Below are positions 1-42,421 of a DNA stretch of 64,000 nucleotides, in pieces. Source of the stretch: Myxococcales bacterium (GTDB lineage: Bacteria; Myxococcota_A; Polyangia; Fen-1088); assembly GCA_031431215.1 (NCBI GenBank), contig JANPCZ010000102.1:23619-87618 (forward strand), written 5' to 3'. Each line of letters opens with the position of its first letter. The stretch's first letter is position 1. The translations under genes were made by a program, and so were the position numbers. The notes under the pieces are model-generated. The model was given only the letters and a program-made list of their open reading frames with translations, ran no database searches and was not told where the DNA came from.

Positions 1-519
1 CCGCTGGGCGGCAATCGGCTTGGGCCGCGGCGTACCTACGTGAACTTGATGACCGTCATGTTGCTGGGTGGGCTGTGGCATGGCGCTAGCTGGAACTTCG
101 TGCTCTGGGGCGCCATTCACGGTGGCATGCTGTCGTTTGAGCGCACGCAGGGCAAGTCGTCGCCCTACCGCCGGCTGCCGCGGTCGGTGCGCGTCGGTAT
201 CACCTTTCTCGTGGTGTGCCTGTCCTGGGTGTTTTTCCGGGCCAAGACCCTGGGTCAGGCAGTGGTGTACTTCAAATCGATGCTGGGCCTCAGCGCCGTG
301 ACAGCCGCTTCGGATGTGGCGGCGGGTGCGCTGTACACGCCCTATCACGGGTCGATGTTCGTGGTGTCGGCGCTGGTGGTATGGGCGGCGCCAAACACCT
401 GGGCATTCACCAATCGCTTGACCGTACCGCGCGCGGTAGGCGGGCTGGCGCTGCTGGTGCTAGCGCTGCTGGTGATGTGGACGCAGACCACCAACCCATT
501 CCTGTATTTCCAGTTCTGA
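1..519 (+). CDS. MBOAT-family membrane O-acyltransferase (AlgI/DltB/PatA-like), C-terminal fragment; the 5' end lies upstream of the window
   Basis: The ORF runs from the window edge. It carries the conserved MBOAT histidine block 'GGLWHGASWNFVLWGAIHG', followed by hydrophobic TM segments. Confidence 0.8.
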   Translation, partial: PLGGNRLGPRRTYVNLMTVMLLGGLWHGASWNFVLWGAIHGGMLSFERTQGKSSPYRRLPRSVRVGITFLVVCLSWVFFRAKTLGQAVVYFKSMLGLSAVTAASDVAAGALYTPYHGSMFVVSALVVWAAPNTWAFTNRLTVPRAVGGLALLVLALLVMWTQTTNPFLYFQF

Positions 520-522
520 ACC

Positions 523-1776
523 ATGAGCCAGGGCGGCCCCACCGATCCATCACACGACGCAGATCTGCGTCGCGGGATCTTGCGCACGGACATGCCACGC
601 TGGCTGGCATGGGTTGCCGTCGTCGTGTTCGTCCTGATGATCTACGGCCTGCCGGTGGGCCAGGCGGTGATCGAGAGGGTCAACGGCGAGGACTCGATGC
701 TGCTGGATATCTTCAAGCGGGCGCCGACCAAGGAAAGCTTCAAGCAGTACGAGGACGACATCGACAAGGCGTCCTACATCAAAGAGAGGGTGCAGCCGCG
801 GGTTCAGTACGCGCTGACCAACTGGGGCGGCGCCGGTAACAAGAAGGCGCTGATCGGGCGCGGCGGTTGGTTGTTCTATAAGCCGGGCGTGATGGCGGTG
901 GCGGGGCCGGGTTTTCTCGACGAGGCGTGGAACCGCAGCCGGGCCAAGAGTGCACTCGACGAAGAAAGCGAAGTCATCCACCCGGATCCGCGGCCGGCCA
1001 TTCTGGACTTTCACAGGGCACTCGCCGCGCGCGGGATCAAGCTTGTGCTGTTCCCGGTGCCTGACAAGTCGAGCGCCCAACCGTTGCAGTTGCACGGACG
1101 CGCGGCTACGGCTGGCGCGGCGTCGGCGCGCAACCGCGACTATGATCGCTTCGTAGCTGAGATGCGCGCCGCGGGCATCGTGGTGCTGGATCTGCCGCTT
1201 CCCGGCGGTTCGCACGACGGGCGGCCCCGGTATCTGGTTCAGGACACGCACTGGACGCCGGAGTTCATGACCGAAGCAGCAGCGGCCTTGGTGCAGGTGC
1301 TGGTGCCGCAGTTCCTGCCGGCGCGTCCACCGCGGCCGGCGCCTCCGCCCCGGCAGGTGTCGCGGCTGGGCGACATCGTCGACATGTTGAAGTTGCCCGA
1401 AGGGCAAACCGGGTTTGTCCCGCAGACCGTCACGCTGTACCAGATGCAGGACTGGCAGCCGAAACCAGACGCGCCCGTGCTGCTGCTGGGTGACAGCTTC
1501 ACCAACATTTTCTCGCTCGAGCAAATGGGCTGGGGCGAGTCCGCGGGGCTTGCGCCGACGCTGTCACGGCTGCTTGATCTCGACATCGACGTCATCGCGC
1601 AGAACGACTCGGGTGCGTTCGCCACCCGACAGACGCTGTCGCGCGCGCTCGGCGCAGGCGAGGATCGCCTGAAGGGCAAGCGCGTGGTCATCTGGGAGTT
1701 CGCCTCGCGCGAGCTGGCGGTCGGCGACTGGAAGCCGTTGCCGTGGCCGGCGGTGGTGGCCGAGGCAGCGCGATGA
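523..1776 (+). CDS. AlgJ/AlgX-like SGNH-fold O-acetyltransferase partner of the MBOAT protein (N-terminal signal anchor)
   Basis: Carries 'QDTHWTPE' (the AlgJ family D-x-H-W motif) and a C-terminal 'LLLGDSFTN' SGNH block, with an N-terminal TM segment. It starts 4 nt after the MBOAT stop. An alternative start is ATG 592. Confidence 0.7.
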   Translation: MSQGGPTDPSHDADLRRGILRTDMPRWLAWVAVVVFVLMIYGLPVGQAVIERVNGEDSMLLDIFKRAPTKESFKQYEDDIDKASYIKERVQPRVQYALTNWGGAGNKKALIGRGGWLFYKPGVMAVAGPGFLDEAWNRSRAKSALDEESEVIHPDPRPAILDFHRALAARGIKLVLFPVPDKSSAQPLQLHGRAATAGAASARNRDYDRFVAEMRAAGIVVLDLPLPGGSHDGRPRYLVQDTHWTPEFMTEAAAALVQVLVPQFLPARPPRPAPPPRQVSRLGDIVDMLKLPEGQTGFVPQTVTLYQMQDWQPKPDAPVLLLGDSFTNIFSLEQMGWGESAGLAPTLSRLLDLDIDVIAQNDSGAFATRQTLSRALGAGEDRLKGKRVVIWEFASRELAVGDWKPLPWPAVVAEAAR

Positions 1777-2693
1777 CGGGGCGGGTCCTGGTGACGGGCG
1801 CCGCTGGCGCGATGGGCTCGCGGCTGGTGCATGGACTCGCTGCCGCGGGGTGGGTGGTGCGGGCGCTGGTGCTGCCCGGGGATCCCCTGCGTTCGCGGAT
1901 CGCGGGCATCGCAAGCGAGGTGGTCGAGGGCGACGTCACCGACGCGGCGGCGATGGCTGCGGCATGTGTGGGCGTCGATACCGTCTATCACCTGGCGGCG
2001 GTGATCATTGCGCACGACTCGGCGGTGTTTCGCCGGGTCAACCGCGACGGTACGGCGCACATGGTGGTGGCGGCCGCGTCCGCGGGTGTCCGCCACTTCA
2101 TCTATGTGTCGTCGGCGTCGGTGACCTATCCGCGCCTGACTGCGTACGGCCAGTCCAAACTGGACGCTGAGGACATTGTCAAATCCGAGCGGGGCTTTCA
2201 GTACACCATCGTCCGGCCCACGCTGGTCTACGACCAGACCGGCGGGCAAGAGTTCGCGATGTTTCGCGCGTACCTGCAGCGCTTCCCGGTGGTGCCGTTC
2301 ATAGGTCCCGGGCATGCGAAGAAGAGTCCGGTGTTCTCGGGTGACGTGGTGGCGGGCCTGCTGGCGCTGGCCGGCAACGATCGCGCGCACGGCAAGACCT
2401 ACAATTTCGCCGGTGGCGAGGCCATCGAGGTAGCCGAGCTGGCGCGGTTGATGCTCGCGCAGCAGGGAGTGAGCAAACGCTTCGTGCACGTGCCGGTGGC
2501 GCTGTGCCGCGCGGCCGCTGCTGTGCTGGGCCGGGTGATGGCTTTTCCACCGCTGACTTTGTATACGATCGCCGCCATGCTCCACGATGCCGATCTGGAC
2601 TGCGGTCCCGCGGCGGCCGATCTCGGCTATCGTCCGCTTGGCGTGCGTGAAGGTTTCCGCAAGTGCTTTGGTACAAAGGAGACGCGATCATGA
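1773..2693 (+). CDS. NAD(P)-dependent sugar-nucleotide epimerase/dehydratase/reductase (extended SDR)
   Basis: Rossmann motif 'VLVTGAAGAMGSRLV' and catalytic 'YGQSK' (YxxxK). ATGA start/stop overlap with the upstream gene. Confidence 0.75.
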   Translation: MTGRVLVTGAAGAMGSRLVHGLAAAGWVVRALVLPGDPLRSRIAGIASEVVEGDVTDAAAMAAACVGVDTVYHLAAVIIAHDSAVFRRVNRDGTAHMVVAAASAGVRHFIYVSSASVTYPRLTAYGQSKLDAEDIVKSERGFQYTIVRPTLVYDQTGGQEFAMFRAYLQRFPVVPFIGPGHAKKSPVFSGDVVAGLLALAGNDRAHGKTYNFAGGEAIEVAELARLMLAQQGVSKRFVHVPVALCRAAAAVLGRVMAFPPLTLYTIAAMLHDADLDCGPAAADLGYRPLGVREGFRKCFGTKETRS

Positions 2694-3691
2694 CCAGATC
2701 CGGTATTGCAGTCTGTGTTCTCTTCGCAGCGTGTGGGACCGTGGGTGCGCCACCGGCGGGCGGTGACGAGACGGTAGGTGACGCCGAGGCCGCAGCGATG
2801 AAAGACGTCGGCGGAAAGGCGGCAGGCAAGATCGTCTGGTCGAGTTCTCGCGTGGGCAACCACGATCTGTTCGTCATGAGCACCGACGGCTCGGGTACGA
2901 CACAGTTGACCAAGGGCGACGCGGTCGACTGGTTTCCGCGCTTCTCGCCCGACGGGACGCGCATTCTGTTTTGCCGCAGCAAAAAAGGTTGGGTCAGCGA
3001 GCGCGACGCCAACACGCTCAACAAGTGGGACCTGTGGCTCATGAGCGCCGCCGGTGGCGACGAAAAGAAGATCGTCGACAACGCCAGCTGGGGCAGCTGG
3101 ATAGGCGCCGACGAAATCGTCTACGTGCGCGGGACCCAGATATTCCGGCGCACTCTTGATGGCGAAGCGCAAGCCATCATGAACAGCGAGGGCGTCGCCG
3201 CCCTGGATGGCGCGCTCTTGCAGCAGCCCGAGATGTCGAAGGACGGGCGTTTCATCGCCATCACGCTACGCGGATCGAAGCGCGAGACCGGCATCTGGAA
3301 CATCGCGAAAAAGACCTGGACCACCACCGGCCTGGGCTGCCAGATCAACTGGACGCCCGACGGTGGCCGCATCTACTGGGTCAATCCGACCGGTAACGGC
3401 GGCAGCGAGGTGTTCACCATGCCGATTGCCAACGGGAAGCCGGCGAAAAAAATGACCGATGACGAGTTGAAGTTCATCGACATCCCGGGTCGCCGCTCGC
3501 ACGAGTACTTCCCGCAGGTGTCGGCTGACGGCAAGTGGCTGGTGTGGGCGGCCACGCAGCGCGGGCACGACCACGACATCGCGGATTACGAAATCTACCT
3601 GTGGGAGATTGGCACGTCGCCCGACAAGGCCGTGCGCCTGACCTTTCATTCGGGCAACGACCGCTGGCCCGACCTGTTTCTGGGGCGATGA
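2690..3691 (+). CDS. TolB-like (PD40/WD40-like) β-propeller periplasmic lipoprotein
   Basis: Lipoprotein signal 'CVLFAACG'. Repeated 'SPDG(T/K)...' PD40-type repeats ('FPRFSPDGTRILF', 'FPQVSADGKWLVW'). ATGA overlaps at both ends. Confidence 0.6.
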   Translation: MTRSGIAVCVLFAACGTVGAPPAGGDETVGDAEAAAMKDVGGKAAGKIVWSSSRVGNHDLFVMSTDGSGTTQLTKGDAVDWFPRFSPDGTRILFCRSKKGWVSERDANTLNKWDLWLMSAAGGDEKKIVDNASWGSWIGADEIVYVRGTQIFRRTLDGEAQAIMNSEGVAALDGALLQQPEMSKDGRFIAITLRGSKRETGIWNIAKKTWTTTGLGCQINWTPDGGRIYWVNPTGNGGSEVFTMPIANGKPAKKMTDDELKFIDIPGRRSHEYFPQVSADGKWLVWAATQRGHDHDIADYEIYLWEIGTSPDKAVRLTFHSGNDRWPDLFLGR

Positions 3692-4776
3692 CCATCCGTC
3701 AGGTGGGCAGGCCGCATCGCATCGCCGTGCTGGGCGCGGGCGGGTTCGTGGGCTCGCACCTGGTGCCCGCGCTGGCGGCGCGGGGTGATGTGGTCATCGA
3801 CGCGGTGGATGTCACGCTCGACAAGTTGCCACCCACGCCGGCGCATGTGACCCGCATCCAGGCGTCCATCGGGAGCGCCGGTCTACTCGACCAGATCACC
3901 GCTCGCTGCGACACCGTGGTGTCGTTGACTGCGCTATGCAATCCGGCGCTGTACAACACGCGCCCGCTGGACGTCATCGACGCCAGCTTCACCGACCTAC
4001 TGCCCCTGGTAAAACTGTGCGCGGCGCGCGCGCGCTGGCTCATTCACTTTTCGACCTGCGAGGTGTATGGACGCGTGGCGCTGGACAGCGACGGGCGGCC
4101 GAGCGAGACGATGAACGAGGACGCCTCGGGGCTGTTCCTGGGGCCGGTGCACAAGGAACGCTGGACCTACGCGTGCGCCAAGCAACTGGCCGAGCGGGTG
4201 ATCTTTGCGCACGGTCGCCACGGGGGCTTGCCGTTTACCATCATCCGGCCGTTCAACGTGATCGGACCACGAATGGATTTCGTGCCCGGCATTGACGGCG
4301 AGGGCGTGCCGCGGGTGCTGGCGTCGTTCATGTCGGCGTTGTTGCGCGGCGATGATCTGCTGTTGGTCGATAGTGGGCGGCAGCGGCGCTCGTTCGTGTC
4401 AGTGGCGGAATTCGTCGATGCGATTGTGAGGGTCATCGACCGCCCGCACGTCACCCACGGCGAGATCCTGAACCTGGGTCATCCCGGTAACGACGTCAGC
4501 ATCCGCAGTCTGGCGCTGGCCCTGGTCCGCGCCTACGGACAGCAGGTGCCCGGTGCTCGCGTGCCTCGGTTGCGCGAAATCACCGCCGAGAGTTTGTATG
4601 GCCCCGGCTACGACGACTCGATCGAGCGTATTCCCGACATCGACAAGGCGCGACGGCTGCTCGACTGGGAGCCGCGCGTGACGCTCGACGAGATGCTCCC
4701 CGGTATCGTGGCCGACTACGTGGCTCGCTACGGGGCAGCGGTCAACGCTCAGGGCCAGAGGCACGCTGGCGAATGA
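3688..4776 (+). CDS. ArnA C-terminal-domain-like UDP-glucuronate oxidative decarboxylase (UDP-GlcA to UDP-4-keto-pentose); no formyltransferase domain
   Basis: Rossmann 'IAVLGAGGFVGSHLV', 'HFSTCEVYG', 'GPVHKERWTYACAKQLAERV' and 'RPFNVIGPRMD...SGRQRRSFV' line up block-for-block with the ArnA dehydrogenase domain and UXS (recalled from memory). ATGA overlaps. Confidence 0.7.
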   Translation: MTIRQVGRPHRIAVLGAGGFVGSHLVPALAARGDVVIDAVDVTLDKLPPTPAHVTRIQASIGSAGLLDQITARCDTVVSLTALCNPALYNTRPLDVIDASFTDLLPLVKLCAARARWLIHFSTCEVYGRVALDSDGRPSETMNEDASGLFLGPVHKERWTYACAKQLAERVIFAHGRHGGLPFTIIRPFNVIGPRMDFVPGIDGEGVPRVLASFMSALLRGDDLLLVDSGRQRRSFVSVAEFVDAIVRVIDRPHVTHGEILNLGHPGNDVSIRSLALALVRAYGQQVPGARVPRLREITAESLYGPGYDDSIERIPDIDKARRLLDWEPRVTLDEMLPGIVADYVARYGAAVNAQGQRHAGE

Positions 4777-5495
4777 AGCTTGTCGTCGTGATTCCCGCGT
4801 ACAACGCCGGCCGCCACCTGCGCGGTGTGGTTGATCGGGTGCGCACGGCGGCGCCGGTCGGGCTTCACCGCATTGTGATCGTCAACGATGGCAGCAGCGA
4901 TGACACCCGAGCGTTGTCAGCATCGCTTGCGGTTGGTGACCCGGGCGTCACACTGGTGGATCGGCCGCGCAACGGCGGCTACGGCGCCGCGATGAAGGAT
5001 GCCCTTGCCGCCGCCCGCGCGGCTGGTGCCGACGTTGTCGCGTGCGTCCACGCCGACGGGCAGTACAGTCCCGAGGCGCTGCCGGAGTTGCTAGAAGATC
5101 GCGCGCGCCGTGGCCTGGATGTGCTGCAAGGGTCGCGCATCGCCGGCGGCGCGGCGCTTGCCGGCGGCATGCCGGTCACCAAGTACGTGGCCAACTGGTG
5201 CTTGAACCGCATCGAGAACGTGACCCTGGGACTGACGATGACTGACTACCACAGCGGCTATCTGGTCTACGGCCCGCGGGCGCTTGCCGAACTGTCGTTC
5301 GGTTGCTTGTCCGACAGCTTCGATTTCGATCTGGAGGTCATCGCTTCGGCGCGGGCGCGCGGCCTGCTGGTCGGCGAGGCGCCGATTCCCACCCACTACG
5401 GCGACGAGATATCGTACCTGCGTCCGATCCCGTACACGCTGCGGGTTCTGCGCGTGCTGTGGCGCTACCGGCGAGGTGCGTATGCGCGTTCCTAG
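4773..5495 (+). CDS. Small soluble GT2 glycosyltransferase, polyprenyl-phosphate sugar synthase type (ArnC/DPM1/Ppm1-like)
   Basis: 'VVVIPAYNAG' and 'IVIVNDGSSDDT' GT-A/GT2 signature with DxD. 240 aa with no TM tail. ATGA overlap with the ArnA-like gene. Confidence 0.7.
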   Translation: MKLVVVIPAYNAGRHLRGVVDRVRTAAPVGLHRIVIVNDGSSDDTRALSASLAVGDPGVTLVDRPRNGGYGAAMKDALAAARAAGADVVACVHADGQYSPEALPELLEDRARRGLDVLQGSRIAGGAALAGGMPVTKYVANWCLNRIENVTLGLTMTDYHSGYLVYGPRALAELSFGCLSDSFDFDLEVIASARARGLLVGEAPIPTHYGDEISYLRPIPYTLRVLRVLWRYRRGAYARS

Positions 5496-7551
5496 CTGCG
5501 GCGGGCGCTGCGCCCTGGTTGCGATGCTGTTACCGCTGGCGTGCCATTCTGGCGGCCCGCGTTTCCCGTGGCCGGGCGCTGCCGACAACGTCGCCTTCGA
5601 GCATGCCGAGGTGCGCACTGTGAATGCCGGTTATCGGCGAACCACGTCGCGGGTGCTGGTGCGTGAGATCGATCGTCCGACGCGCGCCACGCTGGACTAC
5701 GCGGCCTACAACGCCAACTTCATGAACGCCGACGCCGAGCCGGAAGATCCGGCCGCGGCCGGGGTCGGCGCGCGGCCAGATGCGAGCCATCCGTTCGCAG
5801 GCGTGTTCGACGCTGCGACTTTGACGGCGTCGATCCGCAAGACGCCGTTGACCCCAGCCGAACGCGCACATCCACTGGCGTTCGCACCGCTGGTGGAGTA
5901 CTTGGCAACCAAGAACGCCGACGCCGCCTCCGGGCTTGAGGATGTCGCCGCGGCCGTGCGCGCCGAGTCCTGGGGCCTGCCCGGTGGCCCCCACATCGCG
6001 CGCCAGTTGGCCGCCCTGGTGTTCCTGCACGATCCGGGCGCGGACGCAGCGGCCGAGGTGTGGGTGAAGGTCGAGCTGTGGCCGTGGTTCAAGGCTTTTC
6101 CTGACGCTCCCGACGAGGACGGCGACGGCTTTCCGGAAGTCTACGGACGCGTGCGCGCCGATCTGATCAAGCCGGCGACGCTCGCTCTCATCCGGGACGA
6201 CTACGTTGGCAAGCCGTTCGGCGCCGCCGAGGTGAAGTCGTGGGCCAACCAGCTGTCGTCGTACTGGTACCCGTCGTACAACACCGATCTGGTGAAGGGC
6301 GCCGTGGTGTGGCCGGACGACGCAACCGAGTCCGAGGTCCGCGGCGAACTGGGCGGACGCACGTTCGACACGCCAGCGGTCGTGATGCGCGGCAAGCCGC
6401 AGGGCAAGCCGGTCTACAACGTCTTTCTGCTCAAGACGCCCGACGGCAAGCCGGCCGTTCGCCCCGCCGGGCCGGCAGCGACGGCGCCCACGCCGAAGCT
6501 CAAGCGCACCACCCCGACGCCGACGCCGGGCCCGGTCGCCGATGTGGTCAGGCGCGAACTTGCGGCCGCGGGTGGTGGATGGGACAAGTGGGCAGCCAGC
6601 GTCGCGCCGTTCGCCGACAGTGTCCGCAAGCGCGAGAAGAGCACGCCCGCGAGTGTGAAGGGGCTGCCCGGGCTCGATGGTTTCCTGTTCTTCCGTAACG
6701 CGCTTGACTACGTGGTCGGCGGCGATCTCGAGCAGCAAAAGCCCGGCAAGGCTCCGCTGCCGCTGATCGTTGAATTTCGCAAGCTGCTGGCCGACAACGG
6801 TGTCGATTTCCTGTTCGTGCCGGTGCCGACCAAGAGCGAAGTTCTGCCCGACAAGTTCGATCCGGCCGGCAAGCCGTTCGTCGGCAAGGTGGTCAACCCA
6901 TTTGCGCGCAAGTTCGCTCTGGCGCTGACCCAGGCCGGCGTCGAGGTGCTGGACCTCCTGCCGGCTTTCCTGGCCGAGCGGGCGAAGGACGCCACCGCGA
7001 AGGAGCCGATCTACCAGGCGCAGGACACCCACTGGAGTGCGCGCGGGATCGATCTCGCCGCCCGGCTGGTCGCCGCCCGGGTCAAGCAATACCCGTGGTA
7101 CCGCGAGCTTGCTAGCCACCCGCGAAAGTACACGGTGTCGGACGCTCCTTTCGTACGCCACGGAGATCTGCACTCGCGCCTGGCGCCCGCATTGCGTGGC
7201 AAGTACAAGCCCGAGACGCTGGTCGGGCATCAGGTGAAGGGCCCCGATGGCGCGCTCTACGAGGATGACGCCGACAGCCCGATCATCGTACTGGGCGACA
7301 GCTTCACCGGCGTGTACCAGTTGACTGACTGCCAACACGCTGGAATCTCGGCGCACATCGCCCGCGAGATTAGCAGCCCCGTGGATCTGGTGATGAGCTA
7401 CGGCGGTGGTCCCAACGTACGGCAGACGCTGATGCGCCGGGGCGTAGCTGATCTCAGCCGCCGCAAGCTGGTCATCTACATGATGACCGCGCGCGATCTG
7501 TACAACTACTCCGAGGGCTGGGATCCGTTGCGGTTGGAAGCCGGCAAGTGA
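5482..7551 (+). CDS. Lipoprotein with a ~400-aa N-terminal domain of unknown function fused to a C-terminal AlgJ/AlgX-like SGNH domain
   Basis: Signal peptide with lipobox 'LLPLACHSG'. C-terminal 'AQDTHWSARG' and 'IIVLGDSFTGVYQ' repeat the AlgJ motifs of the 523–1776 gene. Its start overlaps the GT2 gene stop by 14 nt. Confidence 0.6.
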   Translation: MRVPSCGGRCALVAMLLPLACHSGGPRFPWPGAADNVAFEHAEVRTVNAGYRRTTSRVLVREIDRPTRATLDYAAYNANFMNADAEPEDPAAAGVGARPDASHPFAGVFDAATLTASIRKTPLTPAERAHPLAFAPLVEYLATKNADAASGLEDVAAAVRAESWGLPGGPHIARQLAALVFLHDPGADAAAEVWVKVELWPWFKAFPDAPDEDGDGFPEVYGRVRADLIKPATLALIRDDYVGKPFGAAEVKSWANQLSSYWYPSYNTDLVKGAVVWPDDATESEVRGELGGRTFDTPAVVMRGKPQGKPVYNVFLLKTPDGKPAVRPAGPAATAPTPKLKRTTPTPTPGPVADVVRRELAAAGGGWDKWAASVAPFADSVRKREKSTPASVKGLPGLDGFLFFRNALDYVVGGDLEQQKPGKAPLPLIVEFRKLLADNGVDFLFVPVPTKSEVLPDKFDPAGKPFVGKVVNPFARKFALALTQAGVEVLDLLPAFLAERAKDATAKEPIYQAQDTHWSARGIDLAARLVAARVKQYPWYRELASHPRKYTVSDAPFVRHGDLHSRLAPALRGKYKPETLVGHQVKGPDGALYEDDADSPIIVLGDSFTGVYQLTDCQHAGISAHIAREISSPVDLVMSYGGGPNVRQTLMRRGVADLSRRKLVIYMMTARDLYNYSEGWDPLRLEAGK

Positions 7552-8387
7552 CGGCGGCGCCGCCGCGCTGGCTGGCACTGGCCCTGAGCGGATGCGTCGC
7601 GCTGTCACTGGCGAGTTGCCGGCGGGCCGATGGCGCACGTCCGGCGCGGCCGCGCACGCTTGAGTTGCTGGCTGCCGGTGGCGCCGTCGATCCGGCGGCC
7701 TCGCTGCTGGCTCTCGAGCGGATCGTGTCGCGGGTGCGCGAGGAGCGCAGACAGAAGCCCGTCGACACGATGCTGGCGGTGCTGAACCGTGTGGTCTTCG
7801 AGCACCTGGGATTCGCCCGCGAGATCGATGATCAGGATCCGCGTTTCATGTTGCTGCCGTCAGTGTTGGATCTGCGTCGCGGCAGTTGCGTGGGACTTGG
7901 CACGCTGTACCTGGCGCTCGGCGAGTGGTTGGGTTTGCCGATTGCGGGCGTGGTGGTGCCCGGTCACTTCTTCGTCCGCGTCACCGACGAGGGTGGCGTT
8001 CACAACGTCGAACTACTGCGGGGCGGCGAGGACATGCCCGACGACTTCTATCGCGGCAAATACCATGTGCCGTTGGCGGGCGCGCCCGCGTATCTGCGCC
8101 CGCTGGCACACTCCGAAGTGCTGGGTGTAGTCAGCTACAACCTGGGCAACGATCTGCGTCGGCGCGGGCGCCTGGCGGAGGCGCGGGATGCGTATGCGCG
8201 CGCAACCGCCAGCTTTCCCGCGTTCGCAGAGGCCCATGCGAGCCTGGGCCTGGTCCTGCAACTGCAGGGTGATCTACCGGCGGCCGAGCAAGCCTACGCA
8301 GCGGCACGGGCCGCGAACCCGGACCTGCCGGGGTTGGAACAGAACCTGAAGGTGCTCGAAAAAGAACGGCACGGAGGCGTCGAATGA
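7548..8387 (+). CDS. SirB1/YchA-like lipoprotein: transglutaminase-like core plus C-terminal TPR repeats
   Basis: Lipobox 'LSLASC'. 'RRGSCVGLGTLYLALGEWLGLPIAGVVVPGHFFVRV' gives a Cys...His transglutaminase-like core. The C-terminus has TPR-like helices 'AEAHASLGLVLQLQGDLPAAEQAY'. GTG start overlaps the previous stop. Confidence 0.55.
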   Translation: MTAAPPRWLALALSGCVALSLASCRRADGARPARPRTLELLAAGGAVDPAASLLALERIVSRVREERRQKPVDTMLAVLNRVVFEHLGFAREIDDQDPRFMLLPSVLDLRRGSCVGLGTLYLALGEWLGLPIAGVVVPGHFFVRVTDEGGVHNVELLRGGEDMPDDFYRGKYHVPLAGAPAYLRPLAHSEVLGVVSYNLGNDLRRRGRLAEARDAYARATASFPAFAEAHASLGLVLQLQGDLPAAEQAYAAARAANPDLPGLEQNLKVLEKERHGGVE

Positions 8388-8440
8388 CCTCGAATGAACC
8401 GCTTACTCCGGCCGTCCAACTTCGGATAGTATCCCCCGCC

Positions 8441-8878
8441 ATGACGAAACGCGGTTTTCGACTCGCCGTTCTTTTCGCTGTCCCCGCGGCCGCAATGGCC
8501 ATCGCCAGGCCGACGCCGGCTGTCGCCGACGAGCCCTTGGTGGTGACCGCGAAGCTTGTGGAGATCCCGGGCAAGTTTCCGTCTGACGATCTGTATGACT
8601 ACGCTTTCGTGATGCGCTACGAGGCCGTGGGCGGGCCGATGGCGGGCAAGTCCCTGCTGGTCGCGCACTACAAGCCGCGGCAGCCGCGCAACAAGATCAA
8701 AGACAAGATGAAGGACAAGGTCGGCGGCAAGCTGCGTAGCTTCGTGGTCGGCGATACGCACAAGCTCAAGCTCACCACCGACCTCAAGAAGATCTGGGCG
8801 GGCGCCCTGGTCGATGAGTTCGCCGCCACCGATCGCAAGAGCGTTCGCTACTTCTGTCTGGAAGCGGACCCGGGCTGA
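8441..8878 (+). CDS. Small secreted Lys-rich hypothetical protein (alternative start 8384, coupled to the upstream stop)
   Basis: Signal peptide 'MTKRGFRLAVLFAVPAAAMAIA' and a Lys-rich middle 'PRQPRNKIKDKMKDKVGGK'. No recognisable domain. Confidence 0.45.
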   Translation: MTKRGFRLAVLFAVPAAAMAIARPTPAVADEPLVVTAKLVEIPGKFPSDDLYDYAFVMRYEAVGGPMAGKSLLVAHYKPRQPRNKIKDKMKDKVGGKLRSFVVGDTHKLKLTTDLKKIWAGALVDEFAATDRKSVRYFCLEADPG

Positions 8879-8895
8879 CCCCCGTCGCGCGGTCG

Positions 8896-10848
8896 GTGGG
8901 GTTCTTGCGCGGATGGCCGGTGGCGGTGGTGGCGGTGCTGGCGTTCGGCGCTGGCCTGACCGCGATCGCCGACGGCGACATCTTCTGGCACCTGGCCGCC
9001 GGGCGCGAGATGGTGCGCACGCGGGCATTCTTGCACGTCGATCCGTTCTCGCTTGTCGCAGCGGGGCGGCTCTGGGTCGATCTGCACTGGCTGTTCCAGC
9101 TTGGCGTCTTTGCCGTTCACACGCTTGGCGGCCTCGCCGGGCTCGTGCTGGTGAAGGCGGCAGTGGTAGCCGCCGGGGCCGTAGTGCTCGTGTACGCGGC
9201 AGGGCGCTCAGGCGGGGTTTCGGACGCGTCCGGGGCCGGTCGGATGGCACGCTTGATCTGCACGCTGGCGCTGTCTGCCATGCTGTTTGCCGCCCGCCAC
9301 CTCTTGCCCGTGCGTCCGGTGATCCTGACGTTGGTCTTTCTCGCCGCGTTCTTCTCGATCCTGGAAGACTTCCGTCGCGGTGGCGCCGTGCGTTCATTGT
9401 GGTGGTTGCCACCCCTGCAAATACTGTGGGCGAATTGCCAGGGCCTGTTCGCGCTTGGGCCGGCGCTGATCGGGGCCTTTGTCCTGGGCGCGCTCTTGCC
9501 TTCTGTCGGCGACCGACGCTGGCGGCCGCTGGCCGGCATGCTGGGCCTGTGTTTGCTGGCGTCCCTGGTCACGCCCTACGGCTGGCGCGGGCCGTGGCTG
9601 GCGGTTGAATTGCTGCTGCGCTTCGATCCCTCCAGCGCCAACGTGTACTCGGCGCAGATCGCGGAGAACGTGCCGCCGTGGATCCTCGAACGCTCCATGC
9701 CCGGGCTGTTTTTTCACCTGAAGTGGTTCCTCGGCTTTCTCGCCGCCAGTTTCTTGCTTGGACGCCGCCATCTGATAGCGAGCCACGCGGTGCTGGTGGC
9801 CGCGCTGGTGGCCCTGGCGCTGGTGGCGAATCGCAACGTGATCCTGCTCTACTGGCTCGGCGCACCGATTGGCGCCATCCAGGCGGCCCCGGCTCTGGCG
9901 GTGCTTGAGCGCTGGCTTCGTGAGCGCGGGCGTTCGGTGCGTGTGGCCGTCGGCGCCGTGGTCGCCGTTGCGGTGATCGCGCTGGCTGTGGTCGAGGTGA
10001 AGGCCTTTGCGCGCGAGCCGTCGCTTGCAGCCCCGACGCCGTTTCGCTTCCCGACCGCGTCGGCGGCGGTGCTTGCGACGACCCCGGCGGGTGGCGCGAT
10101 CTTCTCGGCCGATCACCAGGGCGGCTACCTCATCTGGACCCTTTACCCCCGCATCCGGCCTCACATGGACACGCGTCTCATCTTGCGTACCCGCGACGAA
10201 TACCAGGACTTCCTCGATCTGCTTGATCACCCCGAGCGCTTCGATTTCCTGTCGCAGCGGTATCGCTTCACGCACGCGGTGTTGCCGGTCGGCTTTCCGG
10301 GCCGCTACCTGGGCCTCATCGCGCACCTGGCCGGCAGCGCCGACTGGAAGCTGGTGTTCACCGACGGGCAGGAGACCCTGTTCGCCACCCGCGACGCCAC
10401 CGGCCCGGCGGTTGATCTGGCGGACCCCGCCACCACGCAACGCTTGCTCGACGGCTGCGCCGCGCGCTTTCCATCGGTAAGCGATCTGGCCGCGAGCTGT
10501 CGTGTGCAGACCGCCACGCTGCTCGTGGTGACGGGCCACCTCGCCCTGGCCGCGGGCGCTCTGAACGGCTTGCCCGGCGCCGACGCCCAGGTACTGCTTG
10601 CGCGTTGCCACCTGGCGCTGGGCGATGCCGCGGCCGCCGAAACCATCGCCCGTCGCCTGATCGATGGCGATCCCGAAGACACCGACGCGCTCACCCTGCT
10701 GGCCTCGATTGCCCTTGCGCGTGGCGACGGCGCGGGCGCTCTGACTTTCGTGCGGCGCGCGCTGCACATCGATCCGTTCCACGCCGGCGCACAGGCTTTG
10801 CTTGGCGGCATCGAGGTGGCAGCGCGGAACGCGGGGCCTCCCAGGTAG
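8896..10848 (+). CDS. GT-C fold integral-membrane glycosyltransferase (ArnT/PMT_2-like) fused to C-terminal TPR repeats (TMTC-like architecture)
   Basis: About 10–12 predicted TM helices. First extracytoplasmic loop 'DGDIFWHLAAGREM' matches the ArnT loop signature 'DETRYAEISREM' (D-x-aromatic-x-x-aliphatic-A/S-x-x-REM). C-terminal ~150 aa of TPR-like helices ('ARCHLALGDAAAAETIARRLIDGDPEDTDALTLLASIALARGD'). GTG start. Confidence 0.6.
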   Translation: MGFLRGWPVAVVAVLAFGAGLTAIADGDIFWHLAAGREMVRTRAFLHVDPFSLVAAGRLWVDLHWLFQLGVFAVHTLGGLAGLVLVKAAVVAAGAVVLVYAAGRSGGVSDASGAGRMARLICTLALSAMLFAARHLLPVRPVILTLVFLAAFFSILEDFRRGGAVRSLWWLPPLQILWANCQGLFALGPALIGAFVLGALLPSVGDRRWRPLAGMLGLCLLASLVTPYGWRGPWLAVELLLRFDPSSANVYSAQIAENVPPWILERSMPGLFFHLKWFLGFLAASFLLGRRHLIASHAVLVAALVALALVANRNVILLYWLGAPIGAIQAAPALAVLERWLRERGRSVRVAVGAVVAVAVIALAVVEVKAFAREPSLAAPTPFRFPTASAAVLATTPAGGAIFSADHQGGYLIWTLYPRIRPHMDTRLILRTRDEYQDFLDLLDHPERFDFLSQRYRFTHAVLPVGFPGRYLGLIAHLAGSADWKLVFTDGQETLFATRDATGPAVDLADPATTQRLLDGCAARFPSVSDLAASCRVQTATLLVVTGHLALAAGALNGLPGADAQVLLARCHLALGDAAAAETIARRLIDGDPEDTDALTLLASIALARGDGAGALTFVRRALHIDPFHAGAQALLGGIEVAARNAGPPR

Positions 10849-10926
10849 CGGCGATTGGTGGCGCCTGCCTAGTTGCTCGTCGACGTGAACCGTCTCGCAG
10901 GGTGGCCTGCTATTCTTACCGCCGTG

Positions 10927-11181
10927 ATGAAACGTCTAGTCATGTCCCTGATAGCCGCCTTGGTTTTCGCCGCATTTGCCGTCCCCGCGACGGAGTCAGT
11001 CGCACACGCCCGGCCTGGAGTGTGCGCGGCGAAGAAAGGCGTTCGAAAGTCCAAGGCCAAGAAGAACCAGCGCCACGCCAAACCCCGGGGCAAGAAAGCG
11101 CAGGGCAAGGGCGACGGCACCGGCTCCGCCGAGGATGTTGGCAGCGGTCGGCCCAAGGGTTCGAAGGGCCTGCAACTCTGA
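10927..11181 (+). CDS. Small Lys-rich secreted hypothetical protein (alternative start 10873)
   Basis: Signal peptide 'MKRLVMSLIAALVFAAFAVPA' then a very basic segment 'KKGVRKSKAKKNQRHAKPRGKKAQGK'. No homology recognised. It lies in a 350-bp gap between convergent genes. Confidence 0.3.
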   Translation: MKRLVMSLIAALVFAAFAVPATESVAHARPGVCAAKKGVRKSKAKKNQRHAKPRGKKAQGKGDGTGSAEDVGSGRPKGSKGLQL

Positions 11182-11205
11182 ACCCAGGGTTGCCCGGCGC
11201 TGGCC

Positions 11206-12396
11206 CTACGGCGCTGGATAGAGACGGTTGCGCGGGATCACCTGTCGCGGCTGGCTCGGGCTCTCCCAGGTGAGGGCGACGTTCGCGTTTAGGGCCCCCT
11301 CCCGCATCTCCACCCTTATCGGGTAGCGACGTCCGGCCTCGAGGGGCACCATGGCGGTCCTGGTCCCCACCCCGCCTGAAAACCGATCGATCAGCAGGGC
11401 GCCATTCCACCACAGGCTGCTGCCGTCGTCGGAACTCAAGCTGATTGTGTAGTTCTCGGTGAACGGCGCCTCGACTTCGCCGGTCCAGCGCACGGTGAAG
11501 AAATCGGCCGGCACGCCAGGCGCGGGTGCGCCATTCTTCCAGTCGAAATTGACCGTCGGATCGATGCGAACCACCGTGGCCGGCGGGGTCAGCGTCGTGT
11601 TGCTGAAATACTCCCCCTTGAGACCGGTCCCCTGCGGCGCATCGACGGGCGCATCGACGGGCGCATCGACGGGGCTGACGTCGATGGCGCGATCGGGCGA
11701 CACATCGGGCGGCGGTGCATCGACGCGGGTGTCCGCCGCCGGTGGGGCGTCCGCCGCCGTGCCCTTGACCTCGACCGGGGCTCCATCGACCACCGGGGAA
11801 GTGACAGGCCCGCTGTCGATCGGACCTCCGCCCCCGTCCGGGGATTGAGGTCCGGTGTCGGCCATCGACCCCCGGCATGCACCGGTCGGGTCCTTGATGC
11901 TGGGACAGTTGTCGACCTCGTCCGGAATGCCGTCGTCATCCAGATCGGTGCCGCGCTGTGCGCGCAAGGTCACGGTCACTGTCTGTCGCACGGACGGCGA
12001 GGGGATGCGCGAGGGGATGCGGCTGGCACCCTCGGCCACCGCAACGGCGTCGCGCATTCCCCGCACCACGATCCGACGCTCACCGGGAAGCGACGCATCG
12101 GTTTCGATAATGATCGTGGCCAGAGTCGGACCCCGGCTCGCGAGTTCGCCCTGGTCAGGGACTCGGCGATCCAGGAACACCGCACCCTGTTCGTGAAACC
12201 AGCTCACCACAAGGTGGGACGGCCGGGGCACGTCGGGCTCGATCTCGAACCGAATCTCAAGGTTTCCAAATCGGGCGGGATCGCCGCAGGAAGGCCACCA
12301 AAACAAAGCGGCCGCGAGCCACGCCGCGAAACCCGTGCAAGGCCCGGATCCATTTCGCGGTCGTCTCCTTGGCTGCCCTCGAACGGCCACTCCCAT
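11206..12396 (-). CDS. Secreted protein with thrombospondin type-3-like Ca-binding repeats and a C-terminal PA14 domain
   Basis: 'DDDGIPDEVDNCPSIKDPTG' (TSP3-like) and 'GLKGEYFSNTTL...FFTVRWTGEVEAPFTENYTISLSSDDGSSLWWNG' (PA14). A Pro-rich linker contains a tandem 'VDAP' repeat. Start chosen at ATG 12396, because the 5' part of the track ORF overlaps the upstream gene and is low-complexity. Confidence 0.55.
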   Translation of the reverse strand: MGVAVRGQPRRRPRNGSGPCTGFAAWLAAALFWWPSCGDPARFGNLEIRFEIEPDVPRPSHLVVSWFHEQGAVFLDRRVPDQGELASRGPTLATIIIETDASLPGERRIVVRGMRDAVAVAEGASRIPSRIPSPSVRQTVTVTLRAQRGTDLDDDGIPDEVDNCPSIKDPTGACRGSMADTGPQSPDGGGGPIDSGPVTSPVVDGAPVEVKGTAADAPPAADTRVDAPPPDVSPDRAIDVSPVDAPVDAPVDAPQGTGLKGEYFSNTTLTPPATVVRIDPTVNFDWKNGAPAPGVPADFFTVRWTGEVEAPFTENYTISLSSDDGSSLWWNGALLIDRFSGGVGTRTAMVPLEAGRRYPIRVEMREGALNANVALTWESPSQPRQVIPRNRLYPAP

Positions 12397-12529
12397 CCAC
12401 AAACTATACGTCTTCTCCGAGCAAGCGCGCGCGAGGTCAATCCAGCAGCCTTGGCTCGCGCAGCACCAGCACCGAGCGGAGCCACTGCCGTGCGACGCAC
12501 GCGCGGGATGTCCCGGGGGCACTAGAGTA

Positions 12530-17566: not shown

Positions 17567-17578
17567 GATGACGGCTCC

Positions 17579-18985: not shown

Positions 18986-19162
18986 TGCGAGTTCTCGCAG
19001 CTACCATATACCTCCCTGCCCTCCACAAACCAGGGCGCTTTCGCGCCGGGGTTCCGGGCTTGAGGCACACACGAACTTCGTGCCCGGAGCGTCTCGAGCG
19101 GAAGCCGACATCACCGAACTCGACCCCGGGCGGGCTTGACTCCGGCTGGTCTCCGTAGGCCA

Positions 19163-32820: not shown

Positions 32821-33140
32821 TGGTGGAGGGCGCGGGCGATGAGGTACGGCAAACATTGCGGATCCGGAACCGACTGGGACTGCACGCGCGCGCGGCGGTC
32901 AAGTTTGTGCAGCTCGCAAGCAAGTTCCGCTGCGAGATCAAGGTCAGCAAGGACGGCAACGAGACCAACGGAAAGAGCATCATGGGCCTTTTGACCCTGG
33001 TGGCGGCGTGCGGCATGACCATCGAGGTTGCGGCGGCGGGGGTTGATGCGAGATCGGCTGTCGCCGCACTGGCCGAGCTGGTGGCACGAGGCTTCGACGA
33101 GGGCGTCGATGAAGGAGGTTCTGCAGATGGGCATGGTTAG
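32820..33140 (+). CDS. ptsH: Phosphocarrier protein HPr
   Basis: 'IRNRLGLHARAAVKFV' is the HPr His-15 region (GLHARPA), and 'IEVAAAGVDARSAVAAL' follows. GTG start overlaps the EIIA stop by 1 nt. Confidence 0.75.
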   Translation: MVEGAGDEVRQTLRIRNRLGLHARAAVKFVQLASKFRCEIKVSKDGNETNGKSIMGLLTLVAACGMTIEVAAAGVDARSAVAALAELVARGFDEGVDEGGSADGHG

Positions 33141-42414: not shown

Positions 42415-42421
42415 TCCAATC

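Follow-up and report, generated by a model that had tools for sequence, protein, structure and literature searches.

We identified, at the start of the 64,000-nucleotide stretch of Myxococcales bacterium DNA analyzed here (the window), a block of ten genes that probably encodes one envelope-modification machine assembled from two coupled modules, one for a sugar and one for acetyl groups. Our literature search returned no description of pentose loading combined with acetylation, in keeping with the sequence-only reading, which had not recognized the locus as a described system; its individual parts resemble known systems. The ten genes were as follows.

g1, 1..519, + strand: last 172 residues of an AlgI/PatA-type MBOAT that is truncated at its N-terminus by the window edge
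g2, 523..1776, + strand: predicted membrane-anchored AlgJ-like SGNH acetyltransferase
g3, 1773..2693, + strand: extended SDR, cytoplasmic, of HpnA / 3-beta-HSD / NDUFA9 / NmrA type
g4, 2690..3691, + strand: lipoprotein with a PD40 (TolB-like) beta-propeller
g5, 3688..4776, + strand: predicted decarboxylase of UDP-glucuronate, in the UDP-apiose/UDP-xylose synthase (UAXS) clade
g6, 4773..5495, + strand: GT2 of polyprenyl-phosphate glycosyltransferase type (DPM1/PpgS/ArnC/GtrB-like), soluble or peripheral
g7, 5482..7551, + strand: lipoprotein with a novel N-terminal domain and a C-terminal AlgX/AlgJ-like SGNH domain
g8, 7548..8387, + strand: lipoprotein combining TPR repeats with a transglutaminase-like core (Transglut_core2, SirB1-like)
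g9, 8384..8878, + strand: small secreted all-beta protein, alternative start 8441
g10, 8896..10848, + strand: polytopic GT-C-fold glycosyltransferase with a C-terminal TPR domain, public start 8920

All ten frames of this same-strand run (1 to 10848) were open, with one terminal stop each, and each coordinate of the nine junctions listed in the sequence-only reading was reproduced. Specifically, seven were start/stop overlaps, comprising ATGA at 1773-1776, 2690-2693, 3688-3691, 4773-4776, and 8384-8387, GTGA between g7 and g8 at 7548-7551, and the ATG of g7 at 5482, located 14 nt inside g6 (TAG at 5493-5495); the others were gaps of 3 nt between g1 and g2 (520-522) and of 17 nt before the GTG of g10 at 8896. 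Products identical to those of g2 to g9 were present as independent gene calls in a public protein collection, in which g10 was 642 aa, 8 residues shorter, a start that would extend the last gap to 41 nt. A promoter scan inside the block did not reveal an excess of internal sigma-70-like promoters. The same 4-nt overlap pattern was seen in a respiratory operon at 45472-53224, and, as overlaps of this kind occur often in this genome, they indicate, by themselves, only an operon.

The stronger evidence that the block forms one unit was synteny. About 40 Polyangia genomes, including those of the cultured strains Sorangium sp. So ce1000, So ce1128, So ce375, and So ce388, retained this gene set in an interleaved, compact arrangement, and the order g2-g3-g4-g5-g6-g7-g8 with tight junctions was present in 37-49 Polyangia loci. 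The g5/g6 junction had a median 4-nt overlap across orthologous loci, with an estimated gap of at most 20 nt in 37 of 41. This order was retained even though protein identities were 45-85%, which would be hard to maintain unless the genes shared a function; the claim that they constitute one functional unit is thus supported mainly by synteny rather than by the overlaps.

The block is also composite, joining a sugar module apparently specific to Polyangia to an acetyl module common to other phyla. The latter, an MBOAT and two AlgJ-like proteins, joined in some loci by a PD40 propeller protein, occurred alone in Planctomycetota, Verrucomicrobiota, Acidobacteriota, Armatimonadota, Thioalkalivibrio, Desulfovibrionales, and some Myxococcota, and, of ten distant-phylum neighbors scanned, five had PD40 proteins flanking the MBOAT-AlgJ pair. 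The sugar module seems to have been added in Polyangia. This separate occurrence shows that the modules can, in principle, work independently, and is one of two observations compatible with the rather unlikely reading that two independent systems merely share an operon, the MBOAT, two AlgJ-like proteins, and PD40 protein acetylating a widespread polymer (e.g., peptidoglycan or exopolysaccharide) while the UAXS-type enzyme, GT2, and GT-C glycosylate a different target. The other is that g9 and g10, located upstream of the MBOAT in most relatives, form a sub-block that changes position and orientation relative to the other genes. However, AlgJ, SDR, PD40, UAXS, GT2, and the long AlgJ are interleaved with overlapping stops and starts, an order that persists throughout the approximately 40 genomes despite identities of just 45-70%, and given such stability the simplest reading is that both modules act on the same envelope product.

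Within the acetyl module, g1 (orthologues of ~485 aa) gave partial matches to Pfam MBOAT and NCBIfam DltB, and its universal MBOAT His in WHGASW (nt 79-81) was conserved in 79 of 79 orthologues. The protein ends in FLYFQF (nt 499-516), which agrees with the acyl-shuttle motif FxYxxF described for the MBOAT-SGNH mechanism (PMC12148441); this motif was present in 78 of 80 loci. Pfam ALGX matched g2 (E=1.3e-23), which had 550 relatives in a genome contig collection and carries one N-terminal TM helix (residues 22-51) with a conserved cytoplasmic tail, GGPTDPSHD; its D241-T-H243-W and G-D-S325 were conserved in 80-81 of 81 orthologues. The same family matched residues 396-645 of g7, the candidate terminal acetyltransferase, in which D515-T-H517-W and G-D-S607 were conserved in 37 of 38 orthologues and DxDxDG was invariant, and the N-terminal domain (~370 aa) had neither a Pfam nor a PDB match. 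The MBOAT and two AlgJ-type SGNH proteins first read from the sequence were thereby placed in their families by Pfam, with catalytic residues kept in all three.

O-acetylation relays modify alginate (AlgI-AlgJ-AlgF-AlgX), cellulose (WssH/WssI), and peptidoglycan (PatA/PatB). They share with g1 an MBOAT with a catalytic His and a C-terminal FxYxxF Tyr shuttle, and the pairing of AlgJ with AlgX is mirrored by membrane-anchored g2 and g7, the latter an ALGX-family protein that also carries an extra domain. Unlike in AlgX, this extra domain is N-terminal and novel rather than a C-terminal carbohydrate-binding module. The block further differs from these relays in that no AlgF-like protein was found in it (fold matches of g9 were only OB/NTR-like), a polymer synthase is absent nearby, and the partners are instead a propeller protein (PD40) and a lipoprotein with transglutaminase-like and TPR parts.

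Among the accessory genes, g3 was assigned as an SDR from Pfam, NCBIfam, and PDB matches; its GxxGxxG and Y125xxxK129 were invariant in 49 orthologues, and it directly followed g2 in every orthologous locus. The g4 protein has an N-terminal lipobox and gave partial matches to Pfam PD40 and NCBIfam TolB, and g8 matched Pfam Transglut_core2 and TPR, with Cys114 and His140 invariant in 38 orthologues; Pfam and NCBIfam agreed here with the second SDR, TolB-like, and SirB1-like families proposed earlier. The best-conserved non-membrane component was g9 (identity 59-80%), whose predicted signal peptide improves when translation starts at the ATG at 8441 instead of at 8384; the 8441 start also agrees with a 145-aa cluster member. 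The predicted location of g2, g4, g7, g8, g9, and the C-terminal domains of g10 is outside the inner membrane, judged by signal peptides, lipoboxes, and the TM anchor.

The best solved relative of g5 was Arabidopsis AXS1 (6H0N; 285.6 bits and 41.8% identity), ahead of ArnA (~190 bits) and PbgP3 (198.7 bits), to which identity was 32-35%. In the tree, all 100 bootstraps separated g5 and AXS1 from ArnA and PbgP3. Hence, of the ArnA-like decarboxylase proposed earlier, the SDR decarboxylase family stood and the ArnA clade did not: by these comparisons g5 is a putative UAXS-clade decarboxylase, which makes apiose or xylose more likely than arabinose as the sugar of the block. In alignment, C84 and C124 correspond to UAXS Cys100 and Cys140; the Cys100 signature was invariant in 45 of 46 orthologues, and the Cys140 position was Ala in Sorangium-type orthologues and Ser in one. 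This replacement, together with an identity to AXS1 at the low end relative to the 43-49% of characterized bacterial UDP-apiose synthases (PMC5607165), suggests that the real product could be xylose or a 4-keto-pentose. The earlier proposal that the sugar is a neutral pentose derived from UDP-GlcA is retained. Neither a flippase nor a UDP-glucose dehydrogenase was found within the block. The apiose operon of Xanthomonas pisi likewise couples a UAXS-clade enzyme to a glycosyltransferase by a 4-nt overlap, and the bacterial synthases and g5 are comparable in their identity to AXS1. Its transferases, however, are of the Leloir type, a GT90 and a pfam13704 GT2, and take UDP-sugars directly as donors; the operon is reported to be specific to the strain, and the surroundings of the four bacterial UDP-apiose synthase genes showed no shared operon (PMC5607165, PMC6193724). 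In contrast, the partners of g5 are a polyprenyl-phosphate-type GT2 and a GT-C, in a cassette conserved across the whole class.

The first of these, g6, matched Pfam Glycos_transf_2. Its best NCBIfam matches were PpgS, dolichyl-P hexose transferase, AglJ, and ArnC (39.7 bits), all far below cut-offs, and its only PDB matches (DPMS, ArnC, and GtrB) were all polyprenyl-phosphate GTs. The motifs DDGSxD and HADGQ were conserved in orthologues. A check for assignment of 3688-4776 and 4773-5495 to unrelated families left g5 an SDR and g6 a GT2. For g10, GT-C membership was not demonstrable by sequence, with no match to a Pfam GT-C family, ArnT/PMT_2 and PMT/TMTC included; the fold emerged from a structure model of high confidence and from two fold searches, with ArnT among the matches. 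Thus, the fold of the suggested GT-C plus TPR enzyme was upheld and sequence support for it was not, and g10 is modeled, with high confidence, as a GT-C-fold enzyme whose sequence family is not represented in Pfam. An acidic DGD motif after TM1 was invariant in orthologues, and a periplasmic alpha/beta domain (~375-500) precedes the C-terminal TPR domain (~510-645). GT-C fold similarity reveals neither the donor nor the acceptor of g10.

An N-terminal polytopic GT-C and C-terminal non-cytoplasmic TPR are common to g10, TMTC1-4 (PMC7801869), and, by description, the Pseudomonas aeruginosa pilin D-arabinofuranosyl transferase TfpW (646 aa), which uses a lipid-phosphate pentofuranose donor (bioRxiv 10.1101/2020.04.19.049825). 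The TMTC likeness noted earlier held for architecture and went no further, g10 lacking a match to those Pfam families, and by analogy TfpW appears to be the closer bacterial counterpart, although g10 has no adjacent pilin gene and has the additional alpha/beta domain.

ArnC/ArnT acts in lipid A modification with Ara4N, GtrA/GtrB/GtrC in O-antigen glucosylation, and mycobacterial PpgS/Rv3779 in adding GalN to arabinogalactan. Their common logic is that a cytoplasmic GT2 loads polyprenyl phosphate and a GT-C transfers the sugar outside. Relative to ArnC/ArnT-type systems, the sugar here would come from a UAXS-type enzyme, and amino-sugar chemistry and a flippase gene are absent; g6, with no predicted TM segment, is without the TM hairpin seen in ArnC and GtrB, and g10, unlike ArnT-type GT-Cs, belongs to no Pfam GT-C family and carries TPR repeats. 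Moreover, unlike in three-component lipid-linked sugar systems, the genes are intermixed with those of an acetylation relay.

Taken by family, g5 would convert UDP-glucuronate in the cytoplasm to a UDP-pentose (UDP-apiose, UDP-xylose, or both being most likely), and the translationally coupled g6 would load the pentose onto a polyprenyl phosphate carrier. A flippase encoded outside the block would carry the lipid-linked pentose across the inner membrane, and g10 would transfer it on the periplasmic side to an acceptor (candidates are protein, peptidoglycan, LPS, or exopolysaccharide) recruited by its TPR and alpha/beta domains. By analogy to PatAB and AlgIJX chemistry (PMC12148441, PMC4148444), g1 would move acetyl from a cytoplasmic donor to the Tyr of its C-terminal motif and pass it to g2, and g7 would act on the glycan as terminal O-acetyltransferase, with g4, g8, and g9 as putative periplasmic accessory or scaffolding parts. 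The pentose-bearing glycan itself may be the acetylation substrate.

Emb/Aft enzymes polymerize arabinofuranose from a lipid-linked donor. A doubtful alternative is, by analogy, a GT-C-dependent exopolysaccharide, in which g10 polymerizes a pentose chain, the AlgI/J/X-like relay acetylates it as it forms, and TPR proteins and an outer-membrane barrel export it much as happens with alginate. AlgIJX-type relays do act on polymers in transit (PMC4148444), TfpW has been proposed as both polymerase and transferase (bioRxiv 10.1101/2020.04.19.049825), g8 and g10 have TPR domains, and most orthologous loci add, beside g10, a SASA esterase and a beta-barrel-like protein of ~320 aa that ends in ..SPF, typical of outer-membrane barrels. 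Yet both added genes are missing from the window and from the same-order loci L009 and L012, the barrel call derives from composition only (a Pfam search gave no match), and the block has a single GT-C with no recognizable primer-forming enzyme, export ATPase, or synthase. Finally, a conventional aminoarabinose (Arn) lipid A locus with its aminotransferase and deformylase just past the window edge, which cuts the first gene, is very improbable despite g5 scoring 212 bits on the ArnA model and the ArnC and ArnT matches of g6 and g10: Arn model scores were all far below cut-offs, g5 falls outside the ArnA clade, g10 lacks an ArnT/PMT_2 match, and, as the sequence-only reading had stated for the window, ArnB, ArnD, and formyltransferase were absent there and from the upstream regions of orthologous loci extending beyond its edge, which held g9, barrel-like, g10, and SASA genes or unrelated DUF1552/DUF1592 genes.

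The preferred reading remains one machine with coupled sugar and acetyl modules, encoded by a cassette that spans the class Polyangia and is conserved in culturable Sorangium. If it is true, a pentose pathway and O-acetylation would act on a common envelope product, with the acetyl groups going to a sugar polymer of the cell envelope.

The block at 1-10848 of the window comprises ten open reading frames, all on one strand, and is ended by a convergent gene:

1-519, plus strand: g1, MBOAT protein, truncated by the window edge
523-1776, plus strand: g2, AlgJ-like protein
1773-2693, plus strand: g3, short-chain dehydrogenase/reductase (SDR)
2690-3691, plus strand: g4, PD40 protein
3688-4776, plus strand: g5, decarboxylase-type SDR
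4773-5495, plus strand: g6, GT2 glycosyltransferase
5482-7551, plus strand: g7, ALGX-domain lipoprotein
7548-8387, plus strand: g8, transglutaminase-like/TPR protein
8384-8878, plus strand: g9, small beta protein
8896-10848, plus strand: g10, GT-C/TPR protein
11206-12897, minus strand: secreted PA14-domain protein, 3′ of the cassette

The truncated g1 is separated from the next gene by 3 nt. Thereafter, ATGA overlaps were located at 1773-1776, 2690-2693, 3688-3691, 4773-4776, and 8384-8387, with a GTGA overlap at 7548-7551 and a 14-nt overlap at 5482-5495, while the GTG at 8896 is preceded by a 17-nt gap; every junction listed for the block in the sequence-only reading was thus reproduced at its site. 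The exact products of g2 through g9 are present as independent gene calls in a public protein collection, and the public call for g10 starts at 8920 (642 aa). For g9, the signal peptide is cleaner when translation is taken to start at the alternative ATG at 8441. Stop/start overlaps are frequent in this genome (64-70% GC), and a respiratory operon at 45472-53224 has the same habit, so that the overlaps alone indicate an operon and no more. A promoter scan of the block returned one promoter-like site, the number expected by chance, and a terminator scan returned a weak hairpin only (10897-10910).

The respiratory genes extend over 42332-53224 (plus strand), where an alternative complex III, including a 4Fe-4S subunit, an NrfD-like subunit, ActD, and a cytochrome c subunit, precedes cytochrome c oxidase subunits II and I, with 1-4-nt start/stop overlaps like those of the cassette. 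Closer to the block, the downstream neighbours (11206-12897, 13839-15122, and 15374-18985 on the minus strand, and 19136-20218 on the plus strand) include, besides the PA14-domain protein, a cytochrome c protein, a pair of proteins carrying MopE-like copper-binding motifs (one of them with an added FGE-sulfatase domain), and a fatty acid desaturase, none of them apparently linked to the cassette. A PEP-utilising enzyme at 33028-34896 (plus strand), which has the three characteristic domains of PTS enzyme I, is unrelated to the cassette.

Conservation was pursued with a g2 profile search of species-representative genomes, which exposed 550 relatives; 80 loci were fetched and all window proteins were mapped on them. 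The order MBOAT-g2-g3-g4-g5-g6-g7-g8 was present exactly as in the window in about 40 Polyangia loci, including those of Sorangium sp. So ce1000, So ce1128, So ce375, and So ce388, and proteins in the orthologous Polyangia loci were 45-85% identical to those of the window. The g5/g6 junction had a median overlap of 4 nt (estimated gap ≤20 nt in 37 of 41 loci), and the g2/g3 junction was ≤20 nt in 44 of 49. Both g9 and g10 were present throughout these roughly 40 loci, but as a mobile sub-block that is usually placed upstream of the MBOAT gene and is divergently oriented in some loci. Few had g9 after g8 as in the window (L009, L010, L012, L018, L020, L027, L033, L050, and L058), and among those g10 also followed g9 only in L009. 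In a MAG labelled 'uncultured proteobacterium' (L054), where identity was lower (39-67%), a g3-to-g9 block at 337-7900 (minus strand) was divergent from the MBOAT-g2 pair at 9398-11261 (plus strand), evidence that the cassette is separable between g2 and g3.

Because the window begins inside g1, the context upstream of the MBOAT gene was read from orthologous loci only; an exact-protein look-up led only to a 10.5-kb Logan contig beginning 13 nt before the window, and a single-sequence scan of species-representative genomes for the upstream DNA returned nothing. Most orthologous cassettes had two extra genes adjoining g10. These encode an outer-membrane-barrel-like protein of about 320 aa, which ends in ..SPF and has no Pfam match, and a Gly-rich esterase lipoprotein with a SASA (sialate O-acetylesterase-type) domain (L005:4401-5357 and L005:7333-8496, and likewise L004, L014, L015, L022-L024, L028-L032, L034, L036, L038, L039, and others). 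Neither was found within the window, and they may be located beyond its upstream edge or, as in L009 and L012, be missing altogether. In L009, the region upstream of the MBOAT gene held DUF1592/DUF1588, DUF1552, and GntR regulator genes.

Within the sugar module (g5, g6, and g10), g5 is a stand-alone extended SDR of 362 aa with GxxGxxG and a Thr/Tyr/Lys triad, nearer to UDP-apiose/UDP-xylose synthase (UAXS) than to UDP-xylose synthase (UXS) or ArnA. Its best match among solved structures was Arabidopsis AXS1 (6H0N; 285.6 bits, E=4.8e-84), followed by PbgP3 (198.7 bits), ArnA (~190 bits), and human UXS (~72 bits), and BLASTP identities were 41.8% to AXS1, 34.6% to PbgP3, and 32.0% to ArnA. Two positions separate UAXS (Cys100, Cys140) from ArnA (Ala393, Ser433) and UXS (Ala, Ser), Cys100 being described as key for ring opening (PMC12820599). 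In the alignment g5 has Cys at both (C84 and C124, respectively), the ArnA-type signature being absent, and the ArnA model scored 212 against a cut-off of 777. The first position was Cys in 45 of 46 orthologues, the sole exception reflecting local misalignment, while the second varied between Cys, Ala (in the Sorangium type), and Ser. When 1.84 billion representative proteins were searched exhaustively, only 128 clusters came up at E ≤1e-30, and the best-scoring of these had Cys at the first position and were nearer to AXS1 than to ArnA. In a neighbour-joining reconstruction g5 was placed in a 12-member clade with AXS1, and the split of g5 and AXS1 from ArnA and PbgP3 was recovered in 100 of 100 bootstraps. 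Hence, of the initial description of g5 as an ArnA-like decarboxylase, the decarboxylase-type SDR family stands and the ArnA affinity does not. Because g5 is AXS1-like by score, signature, and tree, and because bacterial enzymes 43-49% identical to AXS1 make UDP-apiose and UDP-xylose (PMC5607165), we read it as a predicted UAXS-type enzyme.

The adjoining g6, which overlaps g5 by 4 nt, encodes a 240-aa GT2 protein with a GT-A domain. Its solved relatives in the PDB search were polyprenyl-phosphate glycosyltransferases only (Pyrococcus DPMS, ArnC, and GtrB), and its DDGSxD and HADGQ acidic motifs, of the metal-binding kind, are kept among orthologues. The best NCBIfam matches (PpgS, dolichyl-phosphate hexose transferase, and AglJ) were all far under equivalog cut-offs, and the ArnC model scored 39.7 against a cut-off of 529. 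A hydrophobic-segment scan found no TM segment at all in g6, and so no C-terminal TM hairpin such as that of GtrB, ArnC, and DPMS. However, PpgS, human DPM1, and mycobacterial Ppm1-D2 likewise have no hairpin, so its absence does not exclude the activity. Discussed alongside these, g3 encodes a cytoplasmic SDR of the HpnA/3-beta-HSD/NDUFA9/OleD type, many members of which use lipidic substrates; it appears active from its invariant GxxGxxG and YxxxK, and could catalyse nucleotide-sugar epimerisation or reduction, or act on a lipid-linked sugar.

By sequence, g10 gave TPR matches only, whether with Pfam at E up to 10, NCBIfam, or phmmer against the PDB, and a profile hmmsearch of PDB sequences likewise recovered TPR proteins only. 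None of the described GT-C families (PMT, PMT_2, to which ArnT belongs, STT3, DPY19, YfhO, and others) had a Pfam match in g10 or in any of 38 family members. Yet an AlphaFold2 model built from 38 homologues (pLDDT 91.9, pTM 0.90) comprises about 13 TM helices and a periplasmic alpha/beta domain, with C-terminal TPR helices (residues 511-645) after the last TM helix and that domain. The polytopic fold is that common to STT3, PglB, ArnT, and PMT, with Foldseek matches to STT3 (E=1.7e-7, TM 0.55), PglB, ArnT, ALG12, and AftA/AftB. Right behind TM1, D26-G-D28 is invariant in the 38 homologues and in 32 of 33 loci (the remaining locus being an alignment gap) and matches the site of the GT-C acidic motif in the first extracytoplasmic loop, pointing to a catalytic role; other invariant charged residues are D62xH64W65, E257-N258, N312-R313-N314, and D425xR427. 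Given this fold and motif, g10 is a predicted GT-C enzyme of a sequence family missing from Pfam, and the combination of GT-C and TPR first suggested for it is borne out by the model and Foldseek on one side and Pfam on the other. A GT-C family that present Pfam models do not detect is thereby brought to light. In architecture, as compared by description, g10 resembles TfpW of P. aeruginosa, a 646-aa protein with 11 TM helices followed by a periplasmic TPR domain, which transfers D-arabinofuranose from a lipid-phosphate donor to pilin (bioRxiv 10.1101/2020.04.19.049825). The GT-C and TPR layout also parallels that of eukaryotic TMTCs (PMC7801869), and no TMTC/PMT-family Pfam match was found in g10.

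The acetyl module comprises g1, g2, and g7. In the g1 fragment the His common to all MBOAT proteins is retained within WHGASW, as in 79 of 79 orthologues. The fragment ends in FLYFQF, and in 78 of 80 loci the last residues of the protein fit FxYxxF. This hexapeptide is the 'acyl shuttle': in PatA its Tyr undergoes auto-acetylation and passes the acetyl group to the SGNH partner (PMC12148441). Equivalents of the AlgJ catalytic residues D190/H192/S288 (Asp-His-Ser) are present in both putative partners. These are g2, with an N-terminal TM anchor and a Pfam ALGX domain (D241/H243/S325, conserved in 80-81 of 81 orthologues), and g7, a lipoprotein with its ALGX domain behind a novel N-terminal domain (D515/H517/S607, 37 of 38). 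The MBOAT and double AlgJ module of the sequence-only reading is therefore upheld at the level of catalytic residues. The anchored g2 mirrors AlgJ, which is likewise anchored and binds polymer weakly, and g7 mirrors AlgX, which acts as terminal transferase and has an additional binding domain (PMC4148444); by analogy, g2 and g7 may share the work as those proteins do.

Preceding the anchor of g2 is a cytoplasmic tail (residues 1-26; 523-600) with the motif GGPTDPSHD..LRRG, the core residues of which were invariant in 33 of 33 aligned homologues and specific enough to pull the 550 relatives; the tail may contact the MBOAT protein or a cytoplasmic partner. The conserved periplasmic N-terminal domain of g7, about 370 aa (residues 25-395; 5554-6666), has an invariant, calcium-site-like DxDxDG together with YWYPSYNTDL and VMRGKPxGK blocks. 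It had no Pfam match, as a single sequence or across 29 members, and no PDB match by profile, and is a candidate substrate-binding domain of the predicted terminal acetyltransferase. As for the partners, the TolB-like propeller and SirB1-like protein initially proposed correspond to the PD40 propeller lipoprotein g4 and to g8, in which Pfam identified TPR repeats and a transglutaminase-like core whose Cys114 and His140 are invariant. The small beta protein g9 is the best-conserved soluble component. It was considered as an AlgF-like adaptor and rejected, the fold search having given weak OB/NTR-like matches only.

Outside Polyangia, MBOAT and g2 are kept in loci of Planctomycetota, Verrucomicrobiota, Acidobacteriota, Armatimonadota, Thioalkalivibrio, and Desulfovibrionales (L056-L085; for example L059:4144-5193, L062:6915-7964, L065:5889-8186, L068:7456-8490, and L075:12906-15002), which together look like a widespread acetylation module. 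In roughly half, a second AlgJ-like gene follows (~30% identical); a PD40 protein was present in 5 of 10 distant neighbours scanned, a Laminin_G_3/ConA-like lectin-domain protein in several loci, and a g9-like gene in three from Planctomycetota. No recognisable homologue of the UAXS, GT2, or GT-C genes of the window was found by tblastn in the distant-phylum loci, and some Myxococcota have the MBOAT-g2 pair only. Since it is present without sugar genes in these phyla and in some Myxococcota, the acetyl module is old and self-sufficient. The recurring set of an MBOAT protein and a pair of AlgJ-like proteins, joined in some loci by a PD40 propeller protein, extends over at least six phyla (Myxococcota, Planctomycetota, Verrucomicrobiota, Acidobacteriota, Armatimonadota, and Pseudomonadota).

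The best-supported model is that the cassette probably combines periplasmic glycosylation with a coupled acetyl relay, both acting on one envelope product. Its families, folds, motifs, topology signals, and synteny were observed directly, and the donor sugar, lipid intermediate, order of steps, and acceptor are inferences. A lipid-linked pentose, apiose or xylose, would feed periplasmic glycosylation, and the MBOAT/SGNH acetyl relay would be coupled to that glycosylation step. Neither a flippase nor a UDP-glucose dehydrogenase is encoded in 1-10848. One main rival, in which two independent modules share the operon, accords with the loci that have acetyl genes only, and less readily with the sugar module, which is a Polyangia-specific insertion interleaved with the acetyl genes and kept so. 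The other, a GT-C-driven polymer pathway with alginate-like export, accords with the AlgJ/AlgX likeness of g2 and g7. Unlike in the alginate and cellulose systems, no AlgF-like adaptor was found for the acetyl module. A conventional Arn (L-Ara4N lipid A modification) locus is effectively excluded, since the ArnB-type aminotransferase, ArnD deformylase, and ArnA N-terminal formyltransferase domain are missing from the window, as previously noted, and aminotransferase, deformylase, and formyltransferase genes also from the orthologous loci including the region upstream of the MBOAT gene, while g5 groups with AXS1 and the ArnA and ArnC scores fall below their cut-offs.

Within the favoured model of coupled glycosylation and acetylation, a narrower and rather doubtful version is that the cassette is the first lipid-linked (non-Leloir) apiosylation pathway, with the apioside O-acetylated by a dedicated relay. 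In this version the UAXS-type synthase and DPM1-like GT2 would yield polyprenyl-phosphate-apiofuranose, the unclassified TPR-bearing GT-C would use it to decorate a Polyangia envelope component, and the MBOAT/AlgJ/AlgX-like relay would O-acetylate the apioside afterwards. Apiose was long considered plant-specific. Bacterial UDP-apiose synthases were demonstrated in 2017, with UDP-apiose formation from UDP-GlcA assayed by NMR or LC-MS (PMC5607165); no conserved operon was found near them, and the apiosides made from their products have yet to be identified (PMC5607165, PMC6193724). The one bacterial apiose operon described has Leloir transferases and is reportedly strain-specific (PMC6193724), whereas the cassette here has a lipid-carrier GT2 with a GT-C and is class-wide. 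Our literature search, a weak negative given its incomplete coverage, returned nothing relevant on polyprenyl- or undecaprenyl-phosphate-xylose or -apiose. The components are of known kinds, and the sequence-only reading did not recognise the system as a described one; in the literature searched, we likewise could not find the combination of a UAXS-type enzyme, polyprenyl-phosphate GT2, unclassified TPR GT-C, and interleaved AlgI/J/X-like relay partnered by PD40, transglutaminase-like, and small beta proteins.

With the cassette present in cultured Sorangium, a genus for which genetic tools are now reported (PMC12391302), bacterial use of apiose or xylose outside the cytoplasm becomes directly testable. 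If the apiosylation reading is true, bacterial apiose, which has been an orphan sugar to date because no acceptor is known for it, would gain a conserved and genetically testable function.
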